Shown here piece after piece: positions 1,922 through 38,952 of a DNA stretch of 64,000 nucleotides. The notes under the pieces were generated by a model. The model ran no database searches. It was not told where the DNA came from and worked only from the letters and a program-made list of their open reading frames with translations. Origin of the DNA: Gemmatimonadaceae bacterium. Lineage in GTDB: Bacteria > Gemmatimonadota > Gemmatimonadetes > Gemmatimonadales > Gemmatimonadaceae. The first letter of the stretch is position 1, and each line of letters starts with the position of its first letter. The stretch spans positions 9,653 to 73,652 of the forward strand of contig DASSOG010000054.1 in assembly GCA_035700805.1 (NCBI GenBank), read 5' to 3'. A program made the translations under genes and the position numbers.

Positions 1922-4183
1922 GTGCGCCTGCCCCTTGCCAGTTTCCGCCAACAACATGTGGTCCTCACCCGCCGGCTGCTCATTGCCGCGACATTCGCCG
2001 CGTGCTTTGGCGCCGGGGTGGCCGTGTCGAGCTGGAAGCTGGTGTGCAGCGCGGGCCGCTGTCCCTCGGTGGACGTGCTCGAGGCGTACACGCCGCGCCA
2101 GACCTCCAAGGTGTACGCGGCCGACGGCCGGTTCATCACGGAGCTCGGGCAGGAGCGGCGGACGCTGGTCACGCTGGCCGACATCCCCGTGGTGGTGCGC
2201 GACGCGTTCCTGGCCACCGAGGACAAGCGCTTCTACTCGCACCACGGCATTGACTTCATCCGGGTGTTCGGCGCCGCGCTGCGGAACCTGCGCAGCGGCA
2301 GCTACGCGCAGGGCTTCTCGACCATCACCATGCAGCTCGCGCGCAACGTCTTTCCCGAGCGCATCTCCACGGAAAAGTCGCTGGTGCGCAAGCTCAAGGA
2401 AGCGCACGTGGCGCTGGCCATTGAGCACCGGTATTCCAAGGATCGCATCCTCGAGCTGTACCTGAACCAGATCTACCTGGGGAACGGCGCGCACGGGGTG
2501 GAGACGGCGGCGCAACGCTACTTCGGCAAGTCGGTGCGCGACGTGAATCTGGCCGAGGCCGCCATGCTCGCGGCGCTGCCCAAGGCTCCCAGCCGGTACG
2601 ACCCGCGGCGCTTTCCGGACCGCGCGGTGCAGCGGCGCAACACGATCATCGAGCTCATGCACCACGATGGGCTCGTGAGCGACGCGGATGCCAGCGTGGC
2701 GCGCGCGTACCCCCTGGCGCTGGCGGGCCGGACGGAGTCGGGGGACGTGGCGCCGTACTTCATGGAATGGATCCGCAAGCAACTGGACGACCGGTTTGGC
2801 CAGCGCCTCTACGAGCAGGGGCTCAAGGTGTACACCACGCTCGACCTGGACCTGCAGGGCGCCGCGGAGCGGGCGCTCGATTCGCAGTTGAGCGCCATCG
2901 AGGGCGGCAAGTACGGGCCGTACAATCACCTCACCTATGAGCAGTACCTGGCGCAGTCCAGCGAAGGCGGCGCGCAGGGCGCGCCCAACTCTCCCTACCT
3001 GCAGGGAGCGTTCGTGGCCATGGACCCGCGCACCGGCGCGGTGCTGGCCATGGTGGGCGGGCGCGACTTTGACGACTCCAAGTTCAACCGCGCCACGCAG
3101 GCGCTGCGGCAGCCCGGCTCCACGTTCAAGCCGATCGTCTATTCCACGGCCATCCAGTCGGGCCTGACCCCGTCGTCCCTGGTGGACGACGTGCCGCTGG
3201 CGGTGCCGCAGCCCGATGGCAGTTTCTGGATGCCGCAGAACTTCGACCTGCGGTTCGACGGGCCGATGACGCTGCGGGTGGCGTTCTATCGCTCGCGCAA
3301 CGTGCCGGCGGTGCGCATCGGCATGGGGCTCGGCGAGCAGGCCGTGATCGATGAAGCGCGGAAGTTCGGGCTCACCTCGTCCATCCCGCCGTATCCCTCC
3401 ATCCATATTGGCGCCGCCGACGTCTATCCCATCGAACTCATTGCGGGCTATTCCACCTTTGCCACGCTGGGCACCCGCGCCGCTCCCATCGGCATCACCC
3501 GCGTGGAGAACGCCGACGGCACGGTGCTCTGGCAGCAGAAGCCGAGGCTCAGCACCATCCTCACGCCGCAGCAGGCGTGGCTGATGGTGGACATGATGAA
3601 GGACGTCATCAGCAAGGGGTCGGCCCGGTACTCCGTGGGGCAGTATTTCCACCTGCCGGCGGCGGGCAAGACCGGCACCACGAACGACGGCGCCGACGTC
3701 TGGTTCATTGGCTACACGGCGGACCTGGTGGCGGGGTTGTGGATCGGGCTGGACCAGCCGGACAAGATCAAGGTCAACGCGCAGGGCGGCATCCTGGCCG
3801 CGCCCGCGTGGACGGCGTTCATGAACGAGGTGTACAGTCGCAAGCCGGCGCCGCCCGACTGGCCCAGGCCCGAGGGCATCGTGAGCGCCGACATCGACTT
3901 CACCACGGACATGCTCCGCAATCCGTACTGCCCGGCCGCGGACGTGATGACCGAGTGGTACATCGCGGGCACGGAGCCCACGGCTTCCTGCGACGTGCAC
4001 ACCCCCAACGGGATCGTGCTCAAGCCCGATACGACCCCGCGCGTGCTGGTGCCCAAGGGGTCGCAGTTGCCCGATTCCATCAACCCGTTCATCCTCCCGC
4101 CGAGCACGCGTGGGCGCACCGGGATCGACACGGGGCGCGCCGGTCTTGACACGGGACGCACGGGCGGCGGTGGCGGCGGCTGA
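1922..4183 (+). CDS. mrcA: Class A penicillin-binding protein (PBP1A-type transglycosylase/transpeptidase)
   Basis: GT51 motifs (EDKRFYSHHGID, RKLKEAHVALAIE). Transpeptidase motifs STFK, SRN and KTGTT. N-terminal TM helix; GTG start. Confidence 0.88.
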   Translation: MRLPLASFRQQHVVLTRRLLIAATFAACFGAGVAVSSWKLVCSAGRCPSVDVLEAYTPRQTSKVYAADGRFITELGQERRTLVTLADIPVVVRDAFLATEDKRFYSHHGIDFIRVFGAALRNLRSGSYAQGFSTITMQLARNVFPERISTEKSLVRKLKEAHVALAIEHRYSKDRILELYLNQIYLGNGAHGVETAAQRYFGKSVRDVNLAEAAMLAALPKAPSRYDPRRFPDRAVQRRNTIIELMHHDGLVSDADASVARAYPLALAGRTESGDVAPYFMEWIRKQLDDRFGQRLYEQGLKVYTTLDLDLQGAAERALDSQLSAIEGGKYGPYNHLTYEQYLAQSSEGGAQGAPNSPYLQGAFVAMDPRTGAVLAMVGGRDFDDSKFNRATQALRQPGSTFKPIVYSTAIQSGLTPSSLVDDVPLAVPQPDGSFWMPQNFDLRFDGPMTLRVAFYRSRNVPAVRIGMGLGEQAVIDEARKFGLTSSIPPYPSIHIGAADVYPIELIAGYSTFATLGTRAAPIGITRVENADGTVLWQQKPRLSTILTPQQAWLMVDMMKDVISKGSARYSVGQYFHLPAAGKTGTTNDGADVWFIGYTADLVAGLWIGLDQPDKIKVNAQGGILAAPAWTAFMNEVYSRKPAPPDWPRPEGIVSADIDFTTDMLRNPYCPAADVMTEWYIAGTEPTASCDVHTPNGIVLKPDTTPRVLVPKGSQLPDSINPFILPPSTRGRTGIDTGRAGLDTGRTGGGGGG

Positions 4184-4231: not shown

Positions 4232-5197
4232 ATGGGTGAGCCCGCGACCGGACGCACCGCCCGAATCTGGCGGGACGGCCAGCTCGTGAACTGGGAAGAC
4301 GCCACGATCCACGTGATCAGCCACGTGGTGCACTATGGGTCGAGCGTCTTTGAGGGCATGCGGTGTTACGAAACGCCCTCTGGCGGAGCCGTGTTCCGCG
4401 CCCGCGACCACATGCGCCGCCTCGTGGACTCCTGCCGCATCTATCGGATTCCGCTCAAGTACTCCGTGGACGAGCTGGTGCGGGGGTGCCTGGACACGAT
4501 CGCCGCCAACCAGGTGCGGGAGTGCTACTTCCGGCCGGTGGTCATCCGCACGGGCGAGCAGATGGACGTGCTGGCCGCCGCGGCCACGGTCGAGACCTAC
4601 ATGATCGCGTGGAAGTGGGGCGCGTACCTGGGCACCGAGGGCATGCAGCACGGCGTGGATGCGCGGGTCTCGAGCTGGCGCCGCGCCGCGCCCGATACGT
4701 TTCCCACCATGGCCAAGGCGGGCGGTAACTACCTGAGCTCGCAACTGGCCAAGATGGAAGCCAAGGCCGACGGCTATGCCGAAGGCATCATGCTGGATGC
4801 CGCCGGCTTCATCTCGGAGGGGAGCGGCGAGAACCTGTTCGCGGTGCGCGACAACGTGCTCTACACGGCGCCGCTCTCGGCGGGCATCCTGCCGGGCATC
4901 ACGCGCGATACGATCATCCAGCTCGCGCACGACCTGGGGCTGGAGGTGCGCGAGCAGCTCCTGCCGCGCGAATTCCTGTACATCGCCGACGAGCTGTTCT
5001 TCTGCGGCACGGCGGTGGAGGTCACCCCCGTCCGCAGCGTGGACCGCGTGCCCGTGGGCAGCGGCGACCGCGGGCCGGTGACCGCCCGGCTGCAGAAGCT
5101 GTACCTGGATACCGCGCACGGCCGCGCGCCCGACCCGCACGGCTGGCTCACGCCCGTGCCGGAACCCGCCGTCGTTGCCGCCGGAGCCGGACGATGA
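4232..5197 (+). CDS. ilvE: Branched-chain amino acid aminotransferase (class IV)
   Basis: Typical N-terminus (IWRDGQLVNWEDATIHV...HYGSSVFEGMRCY) and GITRDTIIQLA. Strong RBS GGAGGAGGGGA upstream of the ATG. Confidence 0.9.
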   Translation: MGEPATGRTARIWRDGQLVNWEDATIHVISHVVHYGSSVFEGMRCYETPSGGAVFRARDHMRRLVDSCRIYRIPLKYSVDELVRGCLDTIAANQVRECYFRPVVIRTGEQMDVLAAAATVETYMIAWKWGAYLGTEGMQHGVDARVSSWRRAAPDTFPTMAKAGGNYLSSQLAKMEAKADGYAEGIMLDAAGFISEGSGENLFAVRDNVLYTAPLSAGILPGITRDTIIQLAHDLGLEVREQLLPREFLYIADELFFCGTAVEVTPVRSVDRVPVGSGDRGPVTARLQKLYLDTAHGRAPDPHGWLTPVPEPAVVAAGAGR

Positions 5198-5237
5198 GAC
5201 CCCTGTCGGTGGCGCGGCGCGCGGTCGGGAGGCGGGC

Positions 5238-5819
5238 ATGATCGTCGGATGCCTGGCCCTGAACGCGTCGTTCGAGCCGCTGACCATGGTGCCGCTCAAG
5301 CGGGCCCTGCGCCTGGTGATCGACGGCAAGGCCGAGATCGTCGAAGCCGACCATGACCGGTTCGTGCACTCGGAGCGCCTGTCGCTGCCGCGCCCCGTGG
5401 TCATTCGCCTCACCAAGTTCATCCACGTGCCGCGCCGCTTCCGGCGGCAGGTGACCAACACGTTCCTGTTCGCGCGCGACCATTACCGGTGCCAGTACTG
5501 CGACCGGCATGTCACGGAACTCAAGCCCCGCGAGTCGCTCACGCGCGATCACCTGATTCCGATTTCGCGCGGCGGCACCAACGACTGGACCAACGTGGTG
5601 GCGGCGTGCAGCGCGTGCAACACGCGCAAGGGCAATCGCATGCCCGACGAGATCGGGATGCATCCGCACACGATCCCGGTGGAACCGCATTTTGTGCACC
5701 TGAGCTGGGCCGTGCGCCGGCTCACGCCCATCCAGGCGCGGTACATCCGGACGTTCTATGGCGACACGGTGCTGCACCAGCTCGAACAGCTCGAGCATCG
5801 AGGCCCGGCGCTGGCCTGA
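5238..5819 (+). CDS. HNH endonuclease family protein
   Basis: HNH/Cys-box core CQYCDR...DHLIPISRGGTNDWTNVVAACSACNTRKG. Start set at MIVGCLALN (ATG 5238) inside the 214-aa ORF. Confidence 0.8.
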   Translation: MIVGCLALNASFEPLTMVPLKRALRLVIDGKAEIVEADHDRFVHSERLSLPRPVVIRLTKFIHVPRRFRRQVTNTFLFARDHYRCQYCDRHVTELKPRESLTRDHLIPISRGGTNDWTNVVAACSACNTRKGNRMPDEIGMHPHTIPVEPHFVHLSWAVRRLTPIQARYIRTFYGDTVLHQLEQLEHRGPALA

Positions 5820-5869
5820 CGCGCGACCCCGGCGCTGTCCGGCGGGGGATGCGCAGCCGTTGGCGCGGG

Positions 5870-6535
5870 TCACTTCTCGCCGGCTACGAACGTGGGCGAG
5901 GTGGCCTCGTAGCTCCGGTGCGTGCCGCCCAGGACGCGTGAGAGCAGCCGCCCGATGCCGTTCCTGAGGGCGGACAGGGGGTTGCCGCTGCCCTTCACGG
6001 CGGGCCGCAGGTCGCCGTGCACCCAGCGCTCCAGTTCTCCCAGGTCGCTGGCGTTCAGCGATTCCACCTCAAGCACCACGTTGTAGTAATACCGCTCGCC
6101 CTTGTGGGACGGCGCCAGGCGCACGCGATACGGCTGCGCCAGCACTGCCTGCGCCGAGTCGAGCGAGGTGATGGCGCCAAAGTCCTCGGACTGCTTGCCG
6201 TCGCGCCGCAGGATGCGGTACGCGGGTCGGTAGGGATCCGGCAGGTACTGCACCAGCACTTCCCAGTGTGTGCTGCTCTCCAGGTGGTTGAACATCCCGC
6301 CGCTGCGCCACAGCTCCAGGCGGAAGTTCAGCTCCACGGGAAACCCGTTGTGCATCAGTTCCTGGAGCGGCGGGTCGTCCAGGATGTGCGTGGCCGACAC
6401 CGCCGGCACGCGCGTTGCTTGTGCGGCGGCCAGGTCCACGCGCACGCCCGGCGCGCCCTGCGCTGCGGCACGCGGCGGCAGCATGGCCAGCGCAAGGGCC
6501 AGGGCCGGGAGCAGGAGGTGGAGGCGCCGGTGCAC
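5870..6535 (-). CDS. Secreted DUF4390-like protein
   Basis: Signal peptide (LLLPALALALAMLPPRAAAQ). Size and pattern resemble DUF4390 by recollection only (ELNFRLELWR...YRILRRDG...YYYNVVLEVESL). GTG start lies 3 nt after the upstream stop. Confidence 0.6.
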   Translation of the reverse strand: MHRRLHLLLPALALALAMLPPRAAAQGAPGVRVDLAAAQATRVPAVSATHILDDPPLQELMHNGFPVELNFRLELWRSGGMFNHLESSTHWEVLVQYLPDPYRPAYRILRRDGKQSEDFGAITSLDSAQAVLAQPYRVRLAPSHKGERYYYNVVLEVESLNASDLGELERWVHGDLRPAVKGSGNPLSALRNGIGRLLSRVLGGTHRSYEATSPTFVAGEK

Positions 6536-6538
6536 GGG

Positions 6539-8257
6539 CTAGAAGCGATGCTGCAGCCGGATGAACACGCGCGCCGGCAGTCCTGCCTCGGACAGTGCCT
6601 TGGCCACGTACACACCCACATTGTCGAAGTCGAGCCCGAACCCGATGTCGGTGTGGAACGTGGACGGGTCGGGCAGGGTCCAGCGGCCGTAGCGCACCGG
6701 CCCGCTGCCGCTCCCCGGACCGGTCATCCAGCCGCGTCCGGCGTCCAGGAACAGCACCCACGCGCCGTTGGCATTCAGGTGCGGTCGCACCCAGTCGTCG
6801 TTGTCCCAGTCGAACAGGTGCAGGTGCAGCGCGCTCCGGTATTCCGCCTGCGCGAGGGCAATGCGGTCGCACTGCGCGGGCATTCCCGCGGGCACCGCGC
6901 CAAAGGCGCACGTGGACACATCCAGTCCGGACACGGGCCGCCGGAACCCGAATCCGGGAAGCGCATCGTAGCCGTCCACGGAGAGCCGGCGCTCAGTGGG
7001 CAGCGCGTCGCCGCCCAGCCACCCGCCGGCCACCACGCGGAGGTTGAGCTGCACGTTGCGCGATACGCGATTGTAACGGCGCAGGTCCACGAACAGCCGG
7101 TTGTACTGCGCGGCATCGGTGGCGGGATAGCTGCGCACCACGCCCGTGCCCGCCAGCGAATCGAAGCGCACCCATCCGTGCTCGAACTCGCCAGCTACGT
7201 ACCAGCCGGCCCAGGGGTTCGCTTCGTCGCTGCGCGTGTCGATGTTCAGCGCCAGGCGGGCCAGGTGCGCGCGCGCGTCGTCCAGCGTCGGGTTGGGACG
7301 CCAGGCGGCATCCGAGCGGAACAGGCTCCACGCGTTTGCCGCGGCGCGGGGGCTCCAGTGTTCGCTGGCATACGAGGCCTTGAGCGTGGCGTCCGGCCCG
7401 ACAAAGAACCCTGCCTCCAGGCTGCCACCCTGCCGGTTATACCAGTCCCGATAATCCCGCCGGAACAGCCCCGACGTGAGGCCGGTTTCCAGGTTGCTCA
7501 GCCCCCACGCTTCCACGGGGGTCACGAGGTCGTACGCTCCCGCGCCCAGCAGCACGCCGCGGCGGCCACCCAGCCGGATTTCCGTGCGCAGGTTGTGGCC
7601 CACGTCGTTGTCGGTGCTGCGGAAGCTGCTGGCCGTGCGCAACACGGCGTATGCGTCCAGGCGCGCGGTCCATCCATCAAAATCGCGCTCCATCTGGGGA
7701 CCCAGATTGATGGGCAGTCCCTCCACGCGGTTGTAGGCGCCGGCGCTCGCTACGTGCAGCCTCGTGCCGCTCCAGTCCTGCTCGTGCTCCACGCGCCGCC
7801 ACCACGGCTCCTCATCAATCCCCTGCTCGGTGGCGCGGATGCGGTCGCCCGATCGGGTGTAGCGCAACGGATCACGGTAGATGCGGATCTCCCCACCCAC
7901 GTACCCGGCGTTCTGGCCGATCACCGTGCCACCGACCACGAGCAGGTTGCCGTCAATTCGCGCGCTCGGGGCCAGCGTTACGTTGCCGTTGATGGCCAGG
8001 AGCGTGCCGGTCACGTGACCGGCCACCTGCACGGGCCCGTCGAGCACCGCCACGTCGCCGGTGATCTCGCGCGCGGCGTGCACATCCAGGGCGCCCGCCA
8101 CACGCAGGGTGGCGTCGGCGTTGTACAGGCGCACGGCTTCGCGGGCCACGTCGCGCGGGAGGGCGCGGCCGTCGAGCCCGGAGTCCGGTTGTTGCGCCCG
8201 GAGCGCCAGGGGCATGGTGAACAGCACGATCGCGAGCAGGAGACGACGCATGGACAT
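6539..8257 (-). CDS. Outer-membrane protein: N-terminal bactofilin-like (polymer-forming cytoskeletal, beta-helix) repeats fused to an Omp85/surface-antigen-type beta-barrel
   Basis: Signal peptide MSMRRLLLAIVLFTMPLALRAQ. The segment GDVAVLDGPVQVAGHVTGTLLAINGNVTLAPSARIDGNLLVVGGTVIG matches the bactofilin repeat style. The C-terminal part has alternating beta-strand character, an ERRLSVDGYDALPGFGF motif (Omp85 RF-LGG-RGY-like), and ends in ...RLQHRF. Confidence 0.72.
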   Translation of the reverse strand: MSMRRLLLAIVLFTMPLALRAQQPDSGLDGRALPRDVAREAVRLYNADATLRVAGALDVHAAREITGDVAVLDGPVQVAGHVTGTLLAINGNVTLAPSARIDGNLLVVGGTVIGQNAGYVGGEIRIYRDPLRYTRSGDRIRATEQGIDEEPWWRRVEHEQDWSGTRLHVASAGAYNRVEGLPINLGPQMERDFDGWTARLDAYAVLRTASSFRSTDNDVGHNLRTEIRLGGRRGVLLGAGAYDLVTPVEAWGLSNLETGLTSGLFRRDYRDWYNRQGGSLEAGFFVGPDATLKASYASEHWSPRAAANAWSLFRSDAAWRPNPTLDDARAHLARLALNIDTRSDEANPWAGWYVAGEFEHGWVRFDSLAGTGVVRSYPATDAAQYNRLFVDLRRYNRVSRNVQLNLRVVAGGWLGGDALPTERRLSVDGYDALPGFGFRRPVSGLDVSTCAFGAVPAGMPAQCDRIALAQAEYRSALHLHLFDWDNDDWVRPHLNANGAWVLFLDAGRGWMTGPGSGSGPVRYGRWTLPDPSTFHTDIGFGLDFDNVGVYVAKALSEAGLPARVFIRLQHRF

Positions 8258-8289
8258 ATCCCTCAATGTCGTAAGTTGGCCGGGGGAAA

Positions 8290-8305
8290 CGCACCTCCCG
8301 TGCCG
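8290..8305 (-). promoter_or_regulatory. Candidate sigma-54 (-24/-12) promoter for the bactofilin-Omp85 / DUF4390-like operon
   Basis: The minus strand reads CGGCACGGGAGGTGCG. This gives GGCAC then TGC with exact GG-N10-GC spacing, 39 nt upstream of the ATG at 8257. GAGGGA RBS lies downstream. Confidence 0.45.
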
Positions 8306-8419
8306 AATCGGGCCGCGTGGGCCAACCCGCCCCCACGCCACTACTTACCTCTCCAGGCGCCACGGCGTGCACTGCGCGGTGTCCTCACCCGGGGGCACCG
8401 GCACCGTGTCGGTCCGGCG

Positions 8420-9799
8420 TCATTCGGCGTCGTTGTCGATCCCCAGCCGACGCATCCGGCGGTACAGGTTGGGCCGGTCCGTCTGCAGCCGCCGCGCCGC
8501 CTCTGCCACATTCCCTCCCGCCACGGAGAGGGCCCGCGAAATCAGCGTGCGCTCAAATTCGTCGAGCGTGTCGTTCAGCGGCTGGGTCAGTCGCGCGGGA
8601 TCGGGAAGGGGCGGCTCGGCGCCCGCCTCGCTGCCTCCAATCTGGACCACCGCGCGCACGTCCGCCGCGGTCACCTCACCGCCCGCGTGCAGGATGGCCA
8701 GGCGTTCCACCACGTTGGCCAGCTCGCGGACGTTGCCGGGCCAGCGGTAGCGCGTGAGCAACTGCAGGGCCTCTTCACCCCACGGGGGGGCCGGATGCCC
8801 GGTGCGCGCGCGGTGCAGGCGCGAGAAGTGCTCCACCAGCGGCGCGATGTCGTCAGGGCGTTCGCGCAGCGGCGGTACCGGCAGGGGAATCACATTCAGC
8901 CGGAAGAGGAGGTCCTCGCGGAAGCTCCCATCGGCCACCGCCCGCGTAAGGTCCTTGTTGGTGGCGGCCAGGATGCGCACGTCCACGCGGATGGGGGCGC
9001 CGCCGCCCACACGCTCAATCTCCCGGGCTTCGATGGCGCGCAGCAGCTTTGCCTGCGCCTCCTGCCCCAGGTCGCCCACCTCATCCAGCAGCAGCGTGCC
9101 CGTGTGCGCCAGCTCAAAGCGGCCGATGCGCCGCTCCGAAGCACCGGTAAAGGCGCCCTTCTCGTGCCCGAACATCTCGCTCTCCACGAGGTCGCGCGGA
9201 ATGGCCGCGCAGTTCACGCGCACGAACGGCCGGTCGTGCCGAGGGCTGGCGAAGTGGATGGCCGCCGCCACCAGCTCCTTGCCGGTGCCCGACTCGCCGG
9301 TGATCAGCACGCGGGCATCCGTGCCGGCCACGCGGTCAATCAACCCGCGGACGCGGTCCATCGCGGCGCTCCGACCCACCATCTCGCCGCCCAGCCCCAC
9401 CTCCTCGCGAAGCGCCCGGGCCTCGCGGCGCACGCGTCGCAGTTCGATGGCCGACGCCAGCGCCAGGAGTACGCTCTCAGGGCTCAGCGGCTTTTCCAGG
9501 AAGTTGAATGCGCCTTCCTTGGTGGCCTTCACGGCATCGCTCAGGTCCGCCTTGCCGCTCATCATCACCACGGGCGTGTCGGGCAGCGCCTGGCGCAGCC
9601 GGTGCAGGGTGGCCATCCCATCCAGCGCGCCGGGCATCGAGAGGTCCAGCAATACCGCGTCCGGCTCGGCGTCGGCGGCGCGCAGCAGGCCCGAGGCGCC
9701 GTCGGCGGCATCGCGCACCTCGAACCCCTCGGCGGCGAGCAGTGCCCCCACCATGCGCCGGATGTTCGGCTCGTCGTCGATGATCAGGACGCTGGGCAT
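8420..9799 (-). CDS. Sigma-54-dependent response regulator (NtrC family: receiver + AAA+ + Fis-type HTH)
   Basis: Receiver ([11 protein letters not shown]...VLLDLSMPG), Walker A GESGTGKE and an intact GAFTGA loop. C-terminal HTH: [26 protein letters not shown]. Confidence 0.92.
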
Positions 9800-9833: not shown

Positions 9834-10142
9834 TCAGCGCGTGGGCGGCTGGCCGCTGCCCACCGACCTGGTCTCGGTCTGCAGACGCGTCAGGAATCGC
9901 TGCGCTTCGGCCACGCGCTCAATCTCCACGGCAATCGAGTCCACCGTCTGTTCAATGCGATCCAGACGCGACTCCAGATTCGCTGGAATGGCGGGCGGCT
10001 CCGCCCGGCGCTCGAAGCGCCGGATGATCGCCCGGACGATGGGCAAGCCGAGCACCATGGCCGTGACCATGGTGAACACGATCGCGACGATCGGGACGGC
10101 GTTGCTGGGAATGCCGTTCATGGGCATCTGAAGGAGCATCAT
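9834..10142 (-). CDS. Small single-pass membrane protein, paralog B (102 aa)
   Basis: This is the in-frame tail of the spurious 314-aa ORF. It has an N-terminal TM helix ([21 protein letters not shown]) and the motif [29 protein letters not shown]. Its ATG overlaps the upstream stop (ATGA). Confidence 0.7.
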
Positions 10143-10423
10143 GATTGCACCGTTGACTTGGCCGCGGGCAGTGGCACCGCCGCGCGTTCCGACAGGAGCC
10201 GGGTGGTGAAGCGCTGCCCCTCGGAGATGCGCTCGATCTCCACCGCGATGGAATCCACGGCTTGTTCGATGCGCGCGATCCGTGCTTCCGTCTCGGCACT
10301 CAACCCGCCCGCCGCGCTCCCCTTGGGCTCCGGGCGCTTGCGGAACAGTCCCAGAAAACTGGTCACGACGTATCCGCCAACCAGGAGCGCCGTGATTGCA
10401 ACGATCATCGTCTGGCCGTCCAT
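10139..10423 (-). CDS. Small single-pass membrane protein, paralog A (94 aa)
   Basis: TM helix (MIVAITALLVGGYVVTSFLGLF) followed by [30 protein letters not shown]. Starts 2 nt after the kinase stop. Confidence 0.75.
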   Translation of the reverse strand: MDGQTMIVAITALLVGGYVVTSFLGLFRKRPEPKGSAAGGLSAETEARIARIEQAVDSIAVEIERISEGQRFTTRLLSERAAVPLPAAKSTVQS

Positions 10424-10425
10424 TG

Positions 10426-11682
10426 CTATGCTCCCGTTTCCAGTGAGTTGGTGTGTCCATCAGCCTCGACTGCCGCGCCCACCGGCAGGACGAAGCGCAC
10501 CGTCGTCCCCACCCCCGGCGTGCTCGCAGCCGTGACCTCGCCCTCGTGCGCCAGGGTGGTCTGCCGGGCGATGGCCAGTCCCAGCCCCGTGCCGCCAGCC
10601 TTGTACGTAACGTACGGATCCCACATGTGCGCCAGTTGGTCGGGTGGAATGCCCGGTCCCGTGTCCTGCACGTCAATGGCCACGGCCGGCTGTCCGCGGA
10701 GGGTGGCGGGCGCCACGCGCAACGTGATGGCGCCGCCCGCGGTCCCGACGCCCACGGCGCGGCACGCGTCAGCCGCATTGAGCACCACGTTGCTCAGCGC
10801 GCGGTGCAGGGCGTCGTGGTGGCCCAGGATCATCGGTGTGGTCGGGTCGACCTCGATGGCCAGGGGAAGTTCAGGGGGCACGGAGGTCCGCGCGACGTAG
10901 CGCACCAGGTCGCCCAGGTCCACGGGCGCGCGCGGGCCCTCGGGCAGCCGCCCGAACTGCGAGAAGCTGCGCGCCAGTGTTTCCAGTCGCGATGTCTCGG
11001 TGGCCAGCACGTCCACAATTTCCTCCAGGTTCCCGGGCGCCTCGCGCCGCAGCCGCGCCACTGCAAAGCGAATGGGCGTGAGCGGGTTCTTCAGTTCATG
11101 GGCCGCCTGCCGCGCGGCCTCGCGCAATGCGGCCGCGCGCTCGGCCTCCAGCGCGCGCGTGCGGCCCAGCTCGATCTCGTCGGCCATGACGCGCATGCGC
11201 GCGCGCAACACCTCGAATTCCGGCGCCCCCCGTGTGTGCACCGGAGTGGGCAGCGGTTCACCGCGCCCGATCCGTTCGGTCCATCCTATCAACTCCACCA
11301 GCGGGCGACTCAACTGGCGGCTCAGGTGGCCGGCCACGCGTGAGGCCCCGAGGCCCACGACGATGGCCAGGAGCAGGATGGCCAGCGCCGCCACCACCAC
11401 CGCCTTCTGGGCGACGTAGGCCAGTTGCCTGGAGTGCAGCAGGTTCTGGCGGAGGGCTTGCTGGTGGGCGTCCACGGCGCGGCGCTGGGCCTGCGTCAGC
11501 GGGGCGGAGCGCACGGCGTCGGCGGCGCGAGAACCGCTGGCGGCCACGCTGTCCCACGCGGTGGTGGCGCCCACCATCGAGAAGGCCCACCGGCTGGTGG
11601 TGAACCACCCCAGGCCGAGCAGGGCAGACGGCACCAGCGCGAACGACAGCAGGATGACAAACAGCCGGCTGCGAAACCCCAT
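10426..11682 (-). CDS. Sensor histidine kinase (2 TM, HAMP, HisKA, HATPase_c)
   Basis: H-box AAHELKNPLTPI, N-box NVVLNAADA, and G-boxes DTGPGIP and GGTGLGLAI. Start set at MGFRSRLFVILL (ATG 11682) inside the 534-aa ORF. Confidence 0.85.
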   Translation of the reverse strand: MGFRSRLFVILLSFALVPSALLGLGWFTTSRWAFSMVGATTAWDSVAASGSRAADAVRSAPLTQAQRRAVDAHQQALRQNLLHSRQLAYVAQKAVVVAALAILLLAIVVGLGASRVAGHLSRQLSRPLVELIGWTERIGRGEPLPTPVHTRGAPEFEVLRARMRVMADEIELGRTRALEAERAAALREAARQAAHELKNPLTPIRFAVARLRREAPGNLEEIVDVLATETSRLETLARSFSQFGRLPEGPRAPVDLGDLVRYVARTSVPPELPLAIEVDPTTPMILGHHDALHRALSNVVLNAADACRAVGVGTAGGAITLRVAPATLRGQPAVAIDVQDTGPGIPPDQLAHMWDPYVTYKAGGTGLGLAIARQTTLAHEGEVTAASTPGVGTTVRFVLPVGAAVEADGHTNSLETGA

Positions 11683-36735: not shown

Positions 36736-38952
36736 GTGGATTTGCACACCGTCAGACGCCTTTTCGTCGCGATTTCCGTGATGGGCTGCGCCGCTCCACT
36801 CGGCGCCCAGTCCTCGGTCCCCGCGCCCATCCCCGTGACGGGCGTCGGTCATCCCCGCGTCGGCCTCGTGCTGAGCGGCGGCAGCGCCAAGGCCTTCGCC
36901 CATATTGGCGTCCTGCAGGTGCTCCAGCAGATGGGCATCCACGTGGATATCGTCACCGGCACCAGCATGGGCGCCATCATTGGCGCCCTCTACGCCGCCG
37001 GATACACCCCCGACCAGCTCGACACGCTGGTGACGCGCGAGGATTGGGGCAGTCTCTTCCATCGCCCCACCGACCGGCGTCAGCAGAGCCCCGCCGAGAA
37101 GGCGGCGAACGAACGCTACATGATCACCTTTCCGCTGGAGCACGCCCGCATTGCGCTCCCGCAAGGCGTGATCCCCCGCCAGGCCATCGCCGAGCGACTG
37201 GAACGGTACCTGTGGCCGGTCCACGATATTTCGGATTTCAACAACCTGCCCACGGCCTTTGGCGCGCTCGTTACGGACCTGAATACCGGGGTGCCAAGCC
37301 TGCTGCAGCACGGCTCGCTGGCGCAGGCGGTGGAGGGCAGCGCGGCCGTACCGGGCGCCTTCGCGCCGGTGCGCCTGGCCGACGGCCGGCAGGTGGTGGA
37401 CGGCGCCGTGGTGCGCAACCTGCCCGCCGAAGACGCCCACGACATGGGCGCCGATCTGCTCATATGTGTTGACGTATCTGAACGCCCTTCGCTGGTGGAC
37501 AGCCTGCATTCACTGGTGGACGTGGTGCAGCAGACCGTGGCCTTTCGCGTGCAGGCGTCCAATCGTATTGAACGACCGTACTGCGACGTGATCGTGGATC
37601 CCAAGGTCACGGGTGTCCCGTCCACTGACTTCAGCAGGGGGCAGTTCTGGATCGATCGCGGCCGCCGCGCCGCGGAGGCGGTGCGTCCGGCACTGGAGGC
37701 ACTCGCCCGCGAGCAGCAGGCCGGTCGGGGTGACATTCCACCTCGGCCACCGCTTCCCGCGGACGATTCCATTTGGCTCAAGCAGGTGAGCTGGACGCCC
37801 GTGAGCGAGGGCGCCGAGGCCCTCGTTCGCGCCAGGGTCGGGCTGAAAGTGGACTCGTGGGTCACCCGCGACCAGGTGTCGGCCGCGGTGGCCCGCATCT
37901 ATTCAACCGGTCGATTCGATCAGGTGAGCTATCGCGTGGAGCCGGCAGCCGGCGGTCGCGCCCTGATCTTCGATCTCACCGAGGGCGACCGCAATGTCGT
38001 GGGCGTGGGCGTGCGCTATGATACGCCGCGCGGCGCGTCGCTCATTGCCGGGGCCACGGTCAACGACTGGCTGACGCCAGGTTCCAAGGCCACGCTCACG
38101 GCGCGTCTCGGCGACGAGCAGCAGTATGAAGGCCGGTTCATGCTGGGCGCGGGGCCCGAGGCGCGCTTTCTGCAGACGTACCGCGCCACGTTGAGCCGCA
38201 CATCGCTGCCCCACGTCCGCCCCGCCGGCGTCGGCTCGGCACCGGTGCTGGATGTGCATGAACTGGCCGCGCAGATCGCGCGTGTCATTGGCAATGCCGG
38301 ATACGCCGGCCTGGAAATCACCCGGGGCCGGGCAATCGACGGGGTGCCGGGGACGAACGGTGTGCTCGCCATGCGGTCGCAATCCTACACCACGCTGGGT
38401 GCCGTGCTGTCGCTTGACACATATGATCGTGTGTTCGCGCCCAGCCAGGGCATGGCGGTCCTGCTCGAATCGCGCCATACCGTCGGGGGTGGGCCCTCAT
38501 GGGAGCACCACCTGCTCAACGCCGAGGGCGCGGTCCCCGTGCACTCTGGCGTTTCCGTACTGGGTCGAGTGGAGCTTGGCGCCGCATCCGGGGCCCAGCT
38601 TCCGCTGCATGAGCGTTTCTTTCTGGGCGGCAGCGTGCCATCCAGTGTGTGGACGTCCAGTTTCGTGCCATTTCCCGGCATTGACCCCCAGTCTGCGCAG
38701 GGGACGGTCGTGCAGGTGGCGCAGGCCGGTGTGCAGGCCGAGGTGAGGGACAACCTGATCCTTGGCGTCCGCGGGAACGTCGGCAACGTGTTCGACGGGT
38801 GGCCGCCGGCGGCCGGCGCGCGGCGTTACCTGCGGGGCGTGGGCATCACGCTCGGTACCACACTGGCGCCCGGCCCGCTGTCCATTACCTTCGGCACGCG
38901 CTCCCTGCACACCGCGCCCGTCATCGAGATCCTCTTCGGCGCGACGTTCTGA
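36736..38952 (+). CDS. Patatin-like phospholipase fused to POTRA/Omp85-type beta-barrel (PlpD-like)
   Basis: Oxyanion GGSAKAF, nucleophile GTSMG, and catalytic Asp in VDGAV. The C-terminal barrel ends in ...LFGATF. GTG start precedes the signal peptide. Confidence 0.82.

Follow-up and report, generated by a model that had tools for sequence, protein, structure and literature searches.

A predicted outer-membrane protein of Gemmatimonadota couples an exported bactofilin-type beta-helix to an Omp85 barrel and is encoded with a DUF4390 partner

We analysed a 64,000-nucleotide stretch of the genome of a Gemmatimonadaceae bacterium (assembly GCA_035700805.1, contig DASSOG010000054.1, positions 9,653 to 73,652 of the forward strand), hereafter the window, and in it an open frame of 572 codons at 6539..8257 on the minus strand. 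A sequence-only reading had described its product as an exported protein in which about 110 residues of bactofilin-like repeats precede a 16-strand Omp85 barrel. Our analysis supports this architecture with high confidence: a signal peptide is followed by a helix and a bactofilin-type beta-helix, an acidic linker with a WWRR motif and a 16-strand barrel. The protein ends in RLQHRF, and thus in the C-terminal Phe that had been noted. The features of the gene are the following.

6539..8257, minus strand: beta-helix-Omp85 gene, 572 residues (open reading frame (ORF) list and translation; homologous clusters)
8195..8257, minus strand: signal peptide, residues 1-21, MSMRRLLLAIVLFTMPLALRA, cleaved before QQ (read by eye)
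7832..8161, minus strand: periplasmic domain, residues 33-142, helix LPRDVAREAxRLYN plus bactofilin-type beta-helix (AlphaFold2 (AF2), Pfam, hhalign, PDB profile search)
7769..7831, minus strand: acidic low-confidence linker, residues 143-163, with WWRR (predicted local distance difference test (pLDDT) <50 at 145-165; motif counts)
6542..7768, minus strand: 16-strand Omp85-type beta-barrel, residues 164-572, ending HRF (AF2, Foldseek, Pfam, profile match)
6941..6961, minus strand: loop-6 motif LPGFGFR, residues 433-439, at the usual Omp85 (V/L/M)RG(F/Y/W) site
6869..6910, minus strand: C450 and C463, both in loop 6; the mature protein has no other cysteine (conservation)
6728..6751, minus strand: beta13 Omp85 motif F503-x-D505-x-G507-R-G-W510 (family-wide conservation; BamA alignment)

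The gene probably starts at the ATG at 8251, six bases downstream of 8257, because homologues begin with MRR at this second Met and a GAGGGA Shine-Dalgarno sequence, which lies ~9 nt upstream of it, is better spaced for 8251. The N-terminus, MSMRRLLLAIVLFTMPLALRA followed by QQ, looks by eye like a typical Sec signal peptide; its n-h-c layout and A-x-A/Q cleavage site are shared with the signal peptides of the homologues. A full-length AF2 model based on a 42-sequence alignment (mean pLDDT 72.7) comprises a helix at 35-46, the beta-helix at 51-142 and, after a linker that is disordered (143-163), exactly 16 strands at 164-568. Motif counts and the recurrence of Pfam matches refer throughout to a set of 42 homologues, in which the WWRR motif of the linker is nearly invariant and W152 is invariant. 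An NCBIfam search of the barrel protein gave no match, and a phmmer search of PDB sequences with this one protein returned no more than a chance match.

The C-terminal part is assigned to Omp85 by structure, family models and sequence motifs. In a Foldseek search against the PDB, BamA chains stand alone at the top (E 2.9e-10, probability 1.0), with template-modelling (TM) scores of 0.52-0.56 when normalised to barrel-only BamA chains. The Pfam Omp85 model (PF01103) matches the window protein at 19.2 bits (E 1e-3), below its 24-bit gathering cut-off, and 32 of the 42 homologues (best E 2.5e-9); precomputed PF01103 matches are common among family members. The sole PDB sequence match of the family profile is Fusobacterium nucleatum BamA, in which LVVFADAGRAW, containing the beta13 FxDxG motif, aligns with VWVLFADAGRGW; the FLDAGRGW of the family thus pairs with FADAGRAW. 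F503, D505 and G507 are invariant across the homologues. An hhalign comparison of the whole-family profile with the genome's own BamA-like protein gave 7%, an uninformative value, as the barrel is too diverged for a comparison of a profile with a single sequence. The 16-strand Omp85 barrel of the sequence-only reading is supported, and no POTRA domain (no match at E<=10) or plug domain that would have redefined the N-terminal region was found in the barrel protein.

Loop 6 departs from the Omp85 pattern. RG[FWY], the lid-lock motif, occurs in none of the 42 homologues; all 42 carry [LMIV]PG[FYW]xF[RGH], in which an invariant proline takes the place of the usual arginine. Two cysteines of the same loop are invariant in 42/42 sequences, and 41 of the 42 have exactly two cysteines after the signal peptide. 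This conservation suggests that C450 and C463 probably form a disulfide, and the pair fits an extracytoplasmic protein.

These barrel features bear on the main alternative to the role proposed below, namely that the protein is a dedicated Omp85 insertase or translocase whose beta-helix replaces POTRA as the receiver of a client, most obviously the DUF4390 protein encoded by the next gene. Protein assembly or translocation is the general function of Omp85 (PMC4104836), and the beta13 FxDxG motif and a C-terminal aromatic residue are retained; however, the loop-6 arginine that is reported to be conserved in the Omp85 lid-lock motif (PMC11358297) is lost, POTRA is lacking, and the genome already encodes two POTRA-bearing Omp85 proteins. 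We consider this alternative quite unlikely, and return to it with the partner gene. The two POTRA-Omp85 proteins are products of separate genes, and the genome also encodes a patatin-Omp85 and a PD40-Omp85; the window gene is therefore an extra paralogue and not BamA. The patatin-Omp85 (PlpD-type) gene lies within the same window (36541-38952, plus strand). With this protein, the two POTRA-Omp85 proteins and at least one PD40/WD40-Omp85, the Omp85 repertoire is rich for a 2.8-Mb genome.

Bactofilins form right-handed triangular beta-helices of about six turns and serve as cytoplasmic, self-polymerising scaffolds. The modelled beta-helix of the window protein has about five turns, with strands recurring every 17-19 residues, and is predicted at pLDDT 92-97; modelled alone, the N-terminal domain reaches pLDDT 93 and a predicted TM score (pTM) of 0.86. 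Pfam Bactofilin (PF04519) matches the window protein at 18.3 bits (E 2.8e-3), below the 27.9-bit gathering cut-off, and 36 of the 42 homologues at E<=0.01 (best E 3.5e-6). The recurrence of both the Omp85 and the Bactofilin model across homologues indicates that the sub-threshold matches reflect more than chance. The repeat segment quoted in the sequence-only reading, GDVAVLDGPVQVAGHVTGTLLAINGNVTLAPSARIDGNLLVVGGTVIG, corresponds to residues 66-113, inside the beta-helix.

A fold search leaves the family of this domain undecided. Foldseek with the isolated N-terminal domain gave no significant match and returned assorted right-handed solenoids (the SV2 luminal domain, CARP, MinC, SufBD and pectate lyases), among which the bactofilin 6RIA ranked 11th; fold search alone therefore cannot settle bactofilin membership. 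Together with the sub-threshold Pfam score, this outcome would fit a generic right-handed beta-solenoid that has converged on bactofilins through its repeats and is not homologous to them. Sequence profiles argue against such convergence. When the N-terminal domain profile was compared with PDB sequences, the top two matches were the solved bactofilins 6RIA (E 0.011) and 2N3D (E 4.4). Aligned by hhalign with canonical free-standing bactofilins collected from Gemmatimonadota genomes, the domain scored a probability of 94% (E 1.4e-7, 64 columns), whereas the reversed profile reached 6%, 40 column shuffles at most 8% and 40 mod-6 shuffles, which keep the hexad period, at most 6%. These controls show that the similarity is specific and not merely compositional. 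In addition, a relative from candidate division KSB1 (P0258) exceeds both Pfam cut-offs, with 47.5 bits for Bactofilin and 51 bits for Omp85, and it aligns with the window domain at 97% (hhalign). We regard convergence as very improbable; by profile similarity, the N-terminal module is homologous to bactofilins, without their defining cytoplasmic-polymer biology.

The signal peptide and the fusion to an outer-membrane barrel, at odds with the cytoplasmic location of bactofilins, imply that the bactofilin-type domain is exported. The canonical bactofilin of the same genome is a separate gene. An exported beta-helix might still polymerise and join barrels end to end into a filament or lattice attached to the outer membrane on its periplasmic side, a model in keeping with the specific profile similarity to polymer-forming bactofilins and with the three bactofilin-type modules that KSB1 relatives bear in tandem. 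Yet the helix before the first turn and the barrel tether would leave both stacking ends occupied, judging from the predicted secondary structure; there are only about five turns; and one clade dispenses with the beta-helix altogether. Polymerisation therefore has, in our view, a slim chance of being correct.

A second model would make the beta-helix a surface passenger secreted through its own barrel, in the manner of a type V autotransporter. Beta-helical passengers are typical of autotransporters, and an N-terminal passenger on an Omp85 barrel recalls the old type Vd model. Here, however, the beta-helix is very short and the barrel protein lacks POTRA. The N-termini of Omp85 proteins are periplasmic. 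The N-terminal domain of the type Vd prototype itself, PlpD, has since been shown to be periplasmic too (PMC11116518), and we give the passenger model hardly any credence. Both the polymer and the passenger models are less likely than an insertase, given an arm that is short, preceded by a helix, tethered at its far end and lost naturally in one clade, and given the revised topology of PlpD.

The survey for the same fusion that the sequence-only reading had suggested found it across Gemmatimonadota, KSB1 and allied phyla. That reading had called the architecture unusual, which holds for the literature (full-text searches covering bactofilin combined with Omp85, exported bactofilin domains and Omp85 in Gemmatimonas did not turn up a description of it) but not for nature, where there are >1,400 homologous clusters at 90% identity. 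Representatives at 50% identity number 338 (E<=1e-30). Species-level genome matches number at least 570, and the best 80 are all from Gemmatimonadota. In an even sample of 201 Gemmatimonadota genomes the barrel gene is present in 127, spread over 58 of 98 genera and nearly always as a single copy; the count takes in five barrel-only remote matches from other classes. Within the window's own family, 36 of the 38 genomes sampled have it. The Pfam pair PF04519 and PF01103 is also common in KSB1 and Zhuqueibacterota, and in Eisenbacteria it occurs with additional carbohydrate-binding modules. Automatic database labels for family members are 'BamA/TamA family outer membrane protein', 'polymer-forming cytoskeletal protein' and 'CcmA (bactofilin family)'.

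Proteins of ~890-940 residues from Eisenbacteria and relatives (P0396, P0397, P0398) combine CBM48, AMPK1_CBM, bactofilin and Omp85, and one from Latescibacterota (P0395) combines DUF4292 with Omp85. Such domain combinations suggest that the N-terminal architectures of Omp85 proteins in phyla of the FCB group are more varied than has been described.

The barrel gene sits within a conserved neighbourhood, with a DUF4390 gene downstream and a two-component system upstream.

5870..6535, minus strand: partner gene, 221-residue exported DUF4390 (PlrP-like) protein (Pfam, synteny, co-occurrence)
8291..8304, minus strand: sigma-54-type promoter-like element GGCACGGGAGGTGC (GG-N10-GC; sequence read)
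8420..9799, minus strand: sigma-54-dependent response regulator, REC-AAA+(GAFTGA)-HTH, upstream of the barrel gene (Pfam)
9834..10423, minus strand: two genes for small single-pass membrane proteins, between kinase and regulator (ORFs)
10426..11682, minus strand: sensor histidine kinase with two transmembrane segments, a short periplasmic loop, HAMP, HisKA and HATPase (Pfam)

The GTG start of the partner gene lies 3 nt past the TAG stop of the barrel gene. Pfam DUF4390 (PF14334) matches the window partner at 17.9 bits (E 2.3e-3), below its cut-off of 27, and 25 of 30 partner homologues (best E 2.5e-8); no other family was matched, and the DUF4390-like profile found no solved structural relative. 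The partner also has a signal peptide, read from its sequence. The homologue-level Pfam match, this signal peptide and the adjoining kinase and sigma-54 regulator are the features by which we assign it to the DUF4390/PlrP family, which elsewhere is associated nearly exclusively with NtrYX-type kinases.

The close spacing of the two genes recurs: an ORF of 200-240 residues begins no more than ~17 nt from the barrel stop in 78 of 83 loci, and within -1 to +5 nt in 70 of them. Among the 201 genomes, 120 have a DUF4390-like gene and the barrel gene is present in all 120; genomes without one of the pair are also without the other (barrel counted in 127, DUF4390-like gene in 120). All pairs inspected are adjacent except in one genome (G090), where the two genes lie on different contigs. 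From this layout the barrel and DUF4390 genes are probably translationally coupled, with their products made in matched amounts.

A partner gene directly after the barrel gene, as in the TamA-TamB or TpsB-TpsA pairs, is what an insertase with a dedicated client would show. The partner, however, is a small, soluble-looking DUF4390 protein without a TPS domain, and its relative PlrP acts in the periplasm. The TamA-TamB and TpsB-TpsA systems likewise encode an Omp85-family barrel followed by a partner that engages it, but those barrels bear POTRA domains and engage very large proteins of the DUF490 or TPS-domain type, whereas the partner here has 220 residues. The pair also differs from two-partner secretion, with its two POTRA domains in the barrel protein and TPS domain in the partner, in that this barrel has no POTRA and the partner matches only DUF4390.

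All 76 related Gemmatimonadota loci have the sigma-54 regulator, with GAFTGA intact, directly upstream of the barrel gene and in the same orientation; the kinase is found upstream in that orientation in 55 of 63. Counterparts of the small membrane protein genes (90-110 residues) are present in two relatives (L001 and L003). Within the 162-nt gap before the barrel gene, GGCACGGGAGGTGC lies 33 nt before the ATG at 8257. The pattern GG[CT]A[CT]-N6-[TG]GC is strongly enriched in the -50/-40 bins, ~31-50 nt ahead of the start codon: 25 of 80 loci have it there, whereas 0.034 would be expected per 180 nt. In loci without the element the regulator stop and the barrel start are mostly 30-60 nt apart, so that barrel and regulator are probably co-transcribed there. 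The genome has rpoN, and scans of 5600-8500 for sigma-70 promoters and intrinsic terminators found nothing. Judged from this gene order and the promoter-like elements, control of the barrel/DUF4390 pair by the adjacent two-component system is likely.

Three genes converge on this operon: a PBP1A gene (1922-4183, plus strand), a class IV aminotransferase gene (4232-5197, plus strand) and an HNH endonuclease gene (5175-5819, plus strand). They are syntenic with the operon in the ~50%-identity relatives L001 and L003, and the neighbourhood as a whole is thus stable.

In some genera of the same family the protein is a barrel-only form of ~460 residues, in which the signal peptide directly precedes the YNRVEGL strand (L122, 979-2361, in G036; L124 in G167; L123). 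The two-component system and the DUF4390 gene are retained at these loci. A maximum-likelihood tree built from the barrel region groups four of the five barrel-only sequences in one clade (support 100/99), which is nested in a helix-bearing clade (100/96); deeper outgroups also bear the helix. It follows that the beta-helix was present ancestrally and that its absence is a secondary loss; the barrel and DUF4390 make up the conserved core of the module. Retention of the partner by the barrel-only clade would also fit the relationship of barrel and client that an insertase implies.

In one genus the ORF of the sigma-54 regulator reads without a stop into the barrel-only signal peptide (...RRMKRLG-MAATVLALCSL...AAQG...), giving a single ORF of 907-954 residues with the DUF4390-like gene 3 nt downstream (L123, 2040-4763, in G073; also P0153, P0164, G071, G088 and G183). 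Misassembly was rejected as the origin of these ORFs, as the same in-frame junction occurs in several genomes and in databases. Internal initiation and signal-peptidase cleavage of a fusion protein are two candidate routes by which the barrel might arise from them.

How might the parts work together? After Sec export and cleavage of the signal peptide, the 16-strand barrel would be inserted into the outer membrane with its N-terminus remaining in the periplasm. We place the beta-helix there because of the established topology of Omp85 proteins and the precedent of PlpD, whose non-POTRA N-terminal domain stays periplasmic and which illustrates the reuse of Omp85 scaffolds for new functions (PMC11116518). 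The rigid five-turn bactofilin-type beta-helix would be presented on the flexible acidic WWRR tether at the position usually taken by POTRA, where it would act as a docking arm rather than a filament, because a conserved helix precedes one of its ends and the barrel is attached at the other. The barrel protein would be made together with the DUF4390 protein and form a complex with it, as translational coupling and perfect co-occurrence suggest. Expression of the pair would depend on the adjacent kinase and sigma-54 regulator, through the sigma-54-type promoter in the window genome and, in many relatives, through read-through from the regulator gene.

In Bordetella, the DUF4390 protein PlrP is the genetically defined periplasmic third component of an NtrYX-family system, and, on genetic evidence, it governs how active the NtrYX-family kinase PlrS is as a phosphatase (PMC13001219). 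By analogy with PlrP acting on PlrS, the barrel/DUF4390 pair might feed back on the neighbouring kinase, or sense for it, as an arm anchored in the outer membrane. Our favoured reading, which we hold tentatively and put somewhat below even, is that the outer-membrane complex is the regulated output of the adjacent two-component system and probably also its feedback or sensing arm. A true signalling role for the pair, taken by itself and argued from the Bordetella system, we consider doubtful.

Several observations weigh against this reading. The periplasmic loop of the kinase, at ~75 residues, lacks the PDC domain by which PlrP presumably acts, and the position of the pair downstream of the regulator is evidence of regulation but not of feedback. 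In the barrel-only clade, partner and two-component system persist without the arm, which is thus not essential to the module. Distant helix-bearing members occur in other contexts (L121, 7001-10586, and L120, 7001-11205): one has the paired ATPase and permease genes of an ABC transporter behind it, and the other, from KSB1, stands in a cell-division neighbourhood, after YggT, DivIVA, LspA and RluD and before an unannotated 583-residue gene. The link to a two-component system is therefore specific to the Gemmatimonadota clade.

The one functional connection that the data support directly is control by the neighbouring sigma-54 system, and it would also fit a structural envelope protein under two-component control, without a signalling or transport role, whose barrel serves as an anchor and whose beta-helix binds peptidoglycan or another envelope component. 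Other Omp85 proteins of non-POTRA type, among them noNterm and PlpD, appear to have non-assembly roles as well. The strict pairing with DUF4390 (120/120) and the association of DUF4390 with NtrYX, in contrast, suggest more than a passive structure, and we judge a purely structural role improbable.

Taken to its furthest, the favoured reading of a regulated output with a feedback or sensing arm would mean that an Omp85 barrel has been turned from an assembly machine into the outer-membrane station of an envelope-spanning signalling chain, a step that we consider unlikely. In such a chain the barrel, its arm and DUF4390 would signal conditions in the outer membrane or periplasm to the inner-membrane kinase, directly or via the two small membrane proteins, and the kinase and sigma-54 regulator would in turn control the synthesis of the barrel and DUF4390 components. 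If true, this would assign a mechanism to DUF4390 and be the first signalling role for an Omp85 protein.

The barrel protein is a variant within the Omp85 superfamily that carries an N-terminal module absent from the published classification. A classification of the superfamily (Heinz & Lithgow 2014, PMC4104836) distinguishes ten subfamilies (BamA, TamA, BamA-like, FhaC, Hmw1B, PlpD, WD40, Metallo, Lipo and noNterm), accepts subfamilies without POTRA and mentions neither bactofilin nor Gemmatimonadota. The non-POTRA groups among them (WD40-Omp85, Metallo-Omp85, PlpD and noNterm; PMC4104836) share with the window protein a 16-strand barrel, a non-POTRA or absent N-terminal region and occurrence beside a canonical BamA. 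The bactofilin-type beta-helix, however, is not among the N-terminal regions of the ten described subfamilies, and loop 6 here has PG[FYW] for RG[FYW]. Pseudomonas aeruginosa PlpD (PMC11116518), which does not serve in assembly, is likewise an Omp85 barrel reused with a functional N-terminal domain that remains in the periplasm. It carries a lipase domain and one POTRA and forms homodimers; the window protein, by contrast, lacks POTRA, bears a beta-helix that is not an enzyme and comes with a dedicated partner gene.

The beta-helix shares with Thermus TtBac (6RIA) and Caulobacter BacA (2N3D) beta-helical turns of ~18 residues and a specific profile similarity. Those proteins are cytoplasmic, free-standing and polymerising, whereas the window domain is shorter, lies behind a signal peptide and a conserved helix, and is joined covalently to an outer-membrane barrel. 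The gene cluster resembles that of PlrP-PlrS-PlrR of Bordetella (PMC13001219) in placing an exported DUF4390 gene beside a membrane kinase and an NtrC/NtrX-type regulator. In the proteobacterial clusters, in contrast, there is no Omp85 gene, plrP precedes the kinase gene and PlrS has a periplasmic PDC domain; here the DUF4390 gene lies downstream of the regulator gene and is coupled to that of the barrel.

Omp85 proteins are core machines of outer-membrane biogenesis and antibiotic targets. Work on PlpD and noNterm proteins shows that their scaffold is reused, and the exported bactofilin-type beta-helix adds another N-terminal architecture, found in hundreds of species of Gemmatimonadota as well as in KSB1 and allied phyla. 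The strict association of the protein with DUF4390 and a sigma-54 system offers a handle on what DUF4390/PlrP proteins bind, on the role of bactofilin folds outside the cytoplasm and on Omp85 barrels in signalling, and the natural barrel-only clade provides a ready comparison for the role of the beta-helix arm. The conserved linkage of barrel, DUF4390 and two-component system points to an unstudied cell-envelope module.

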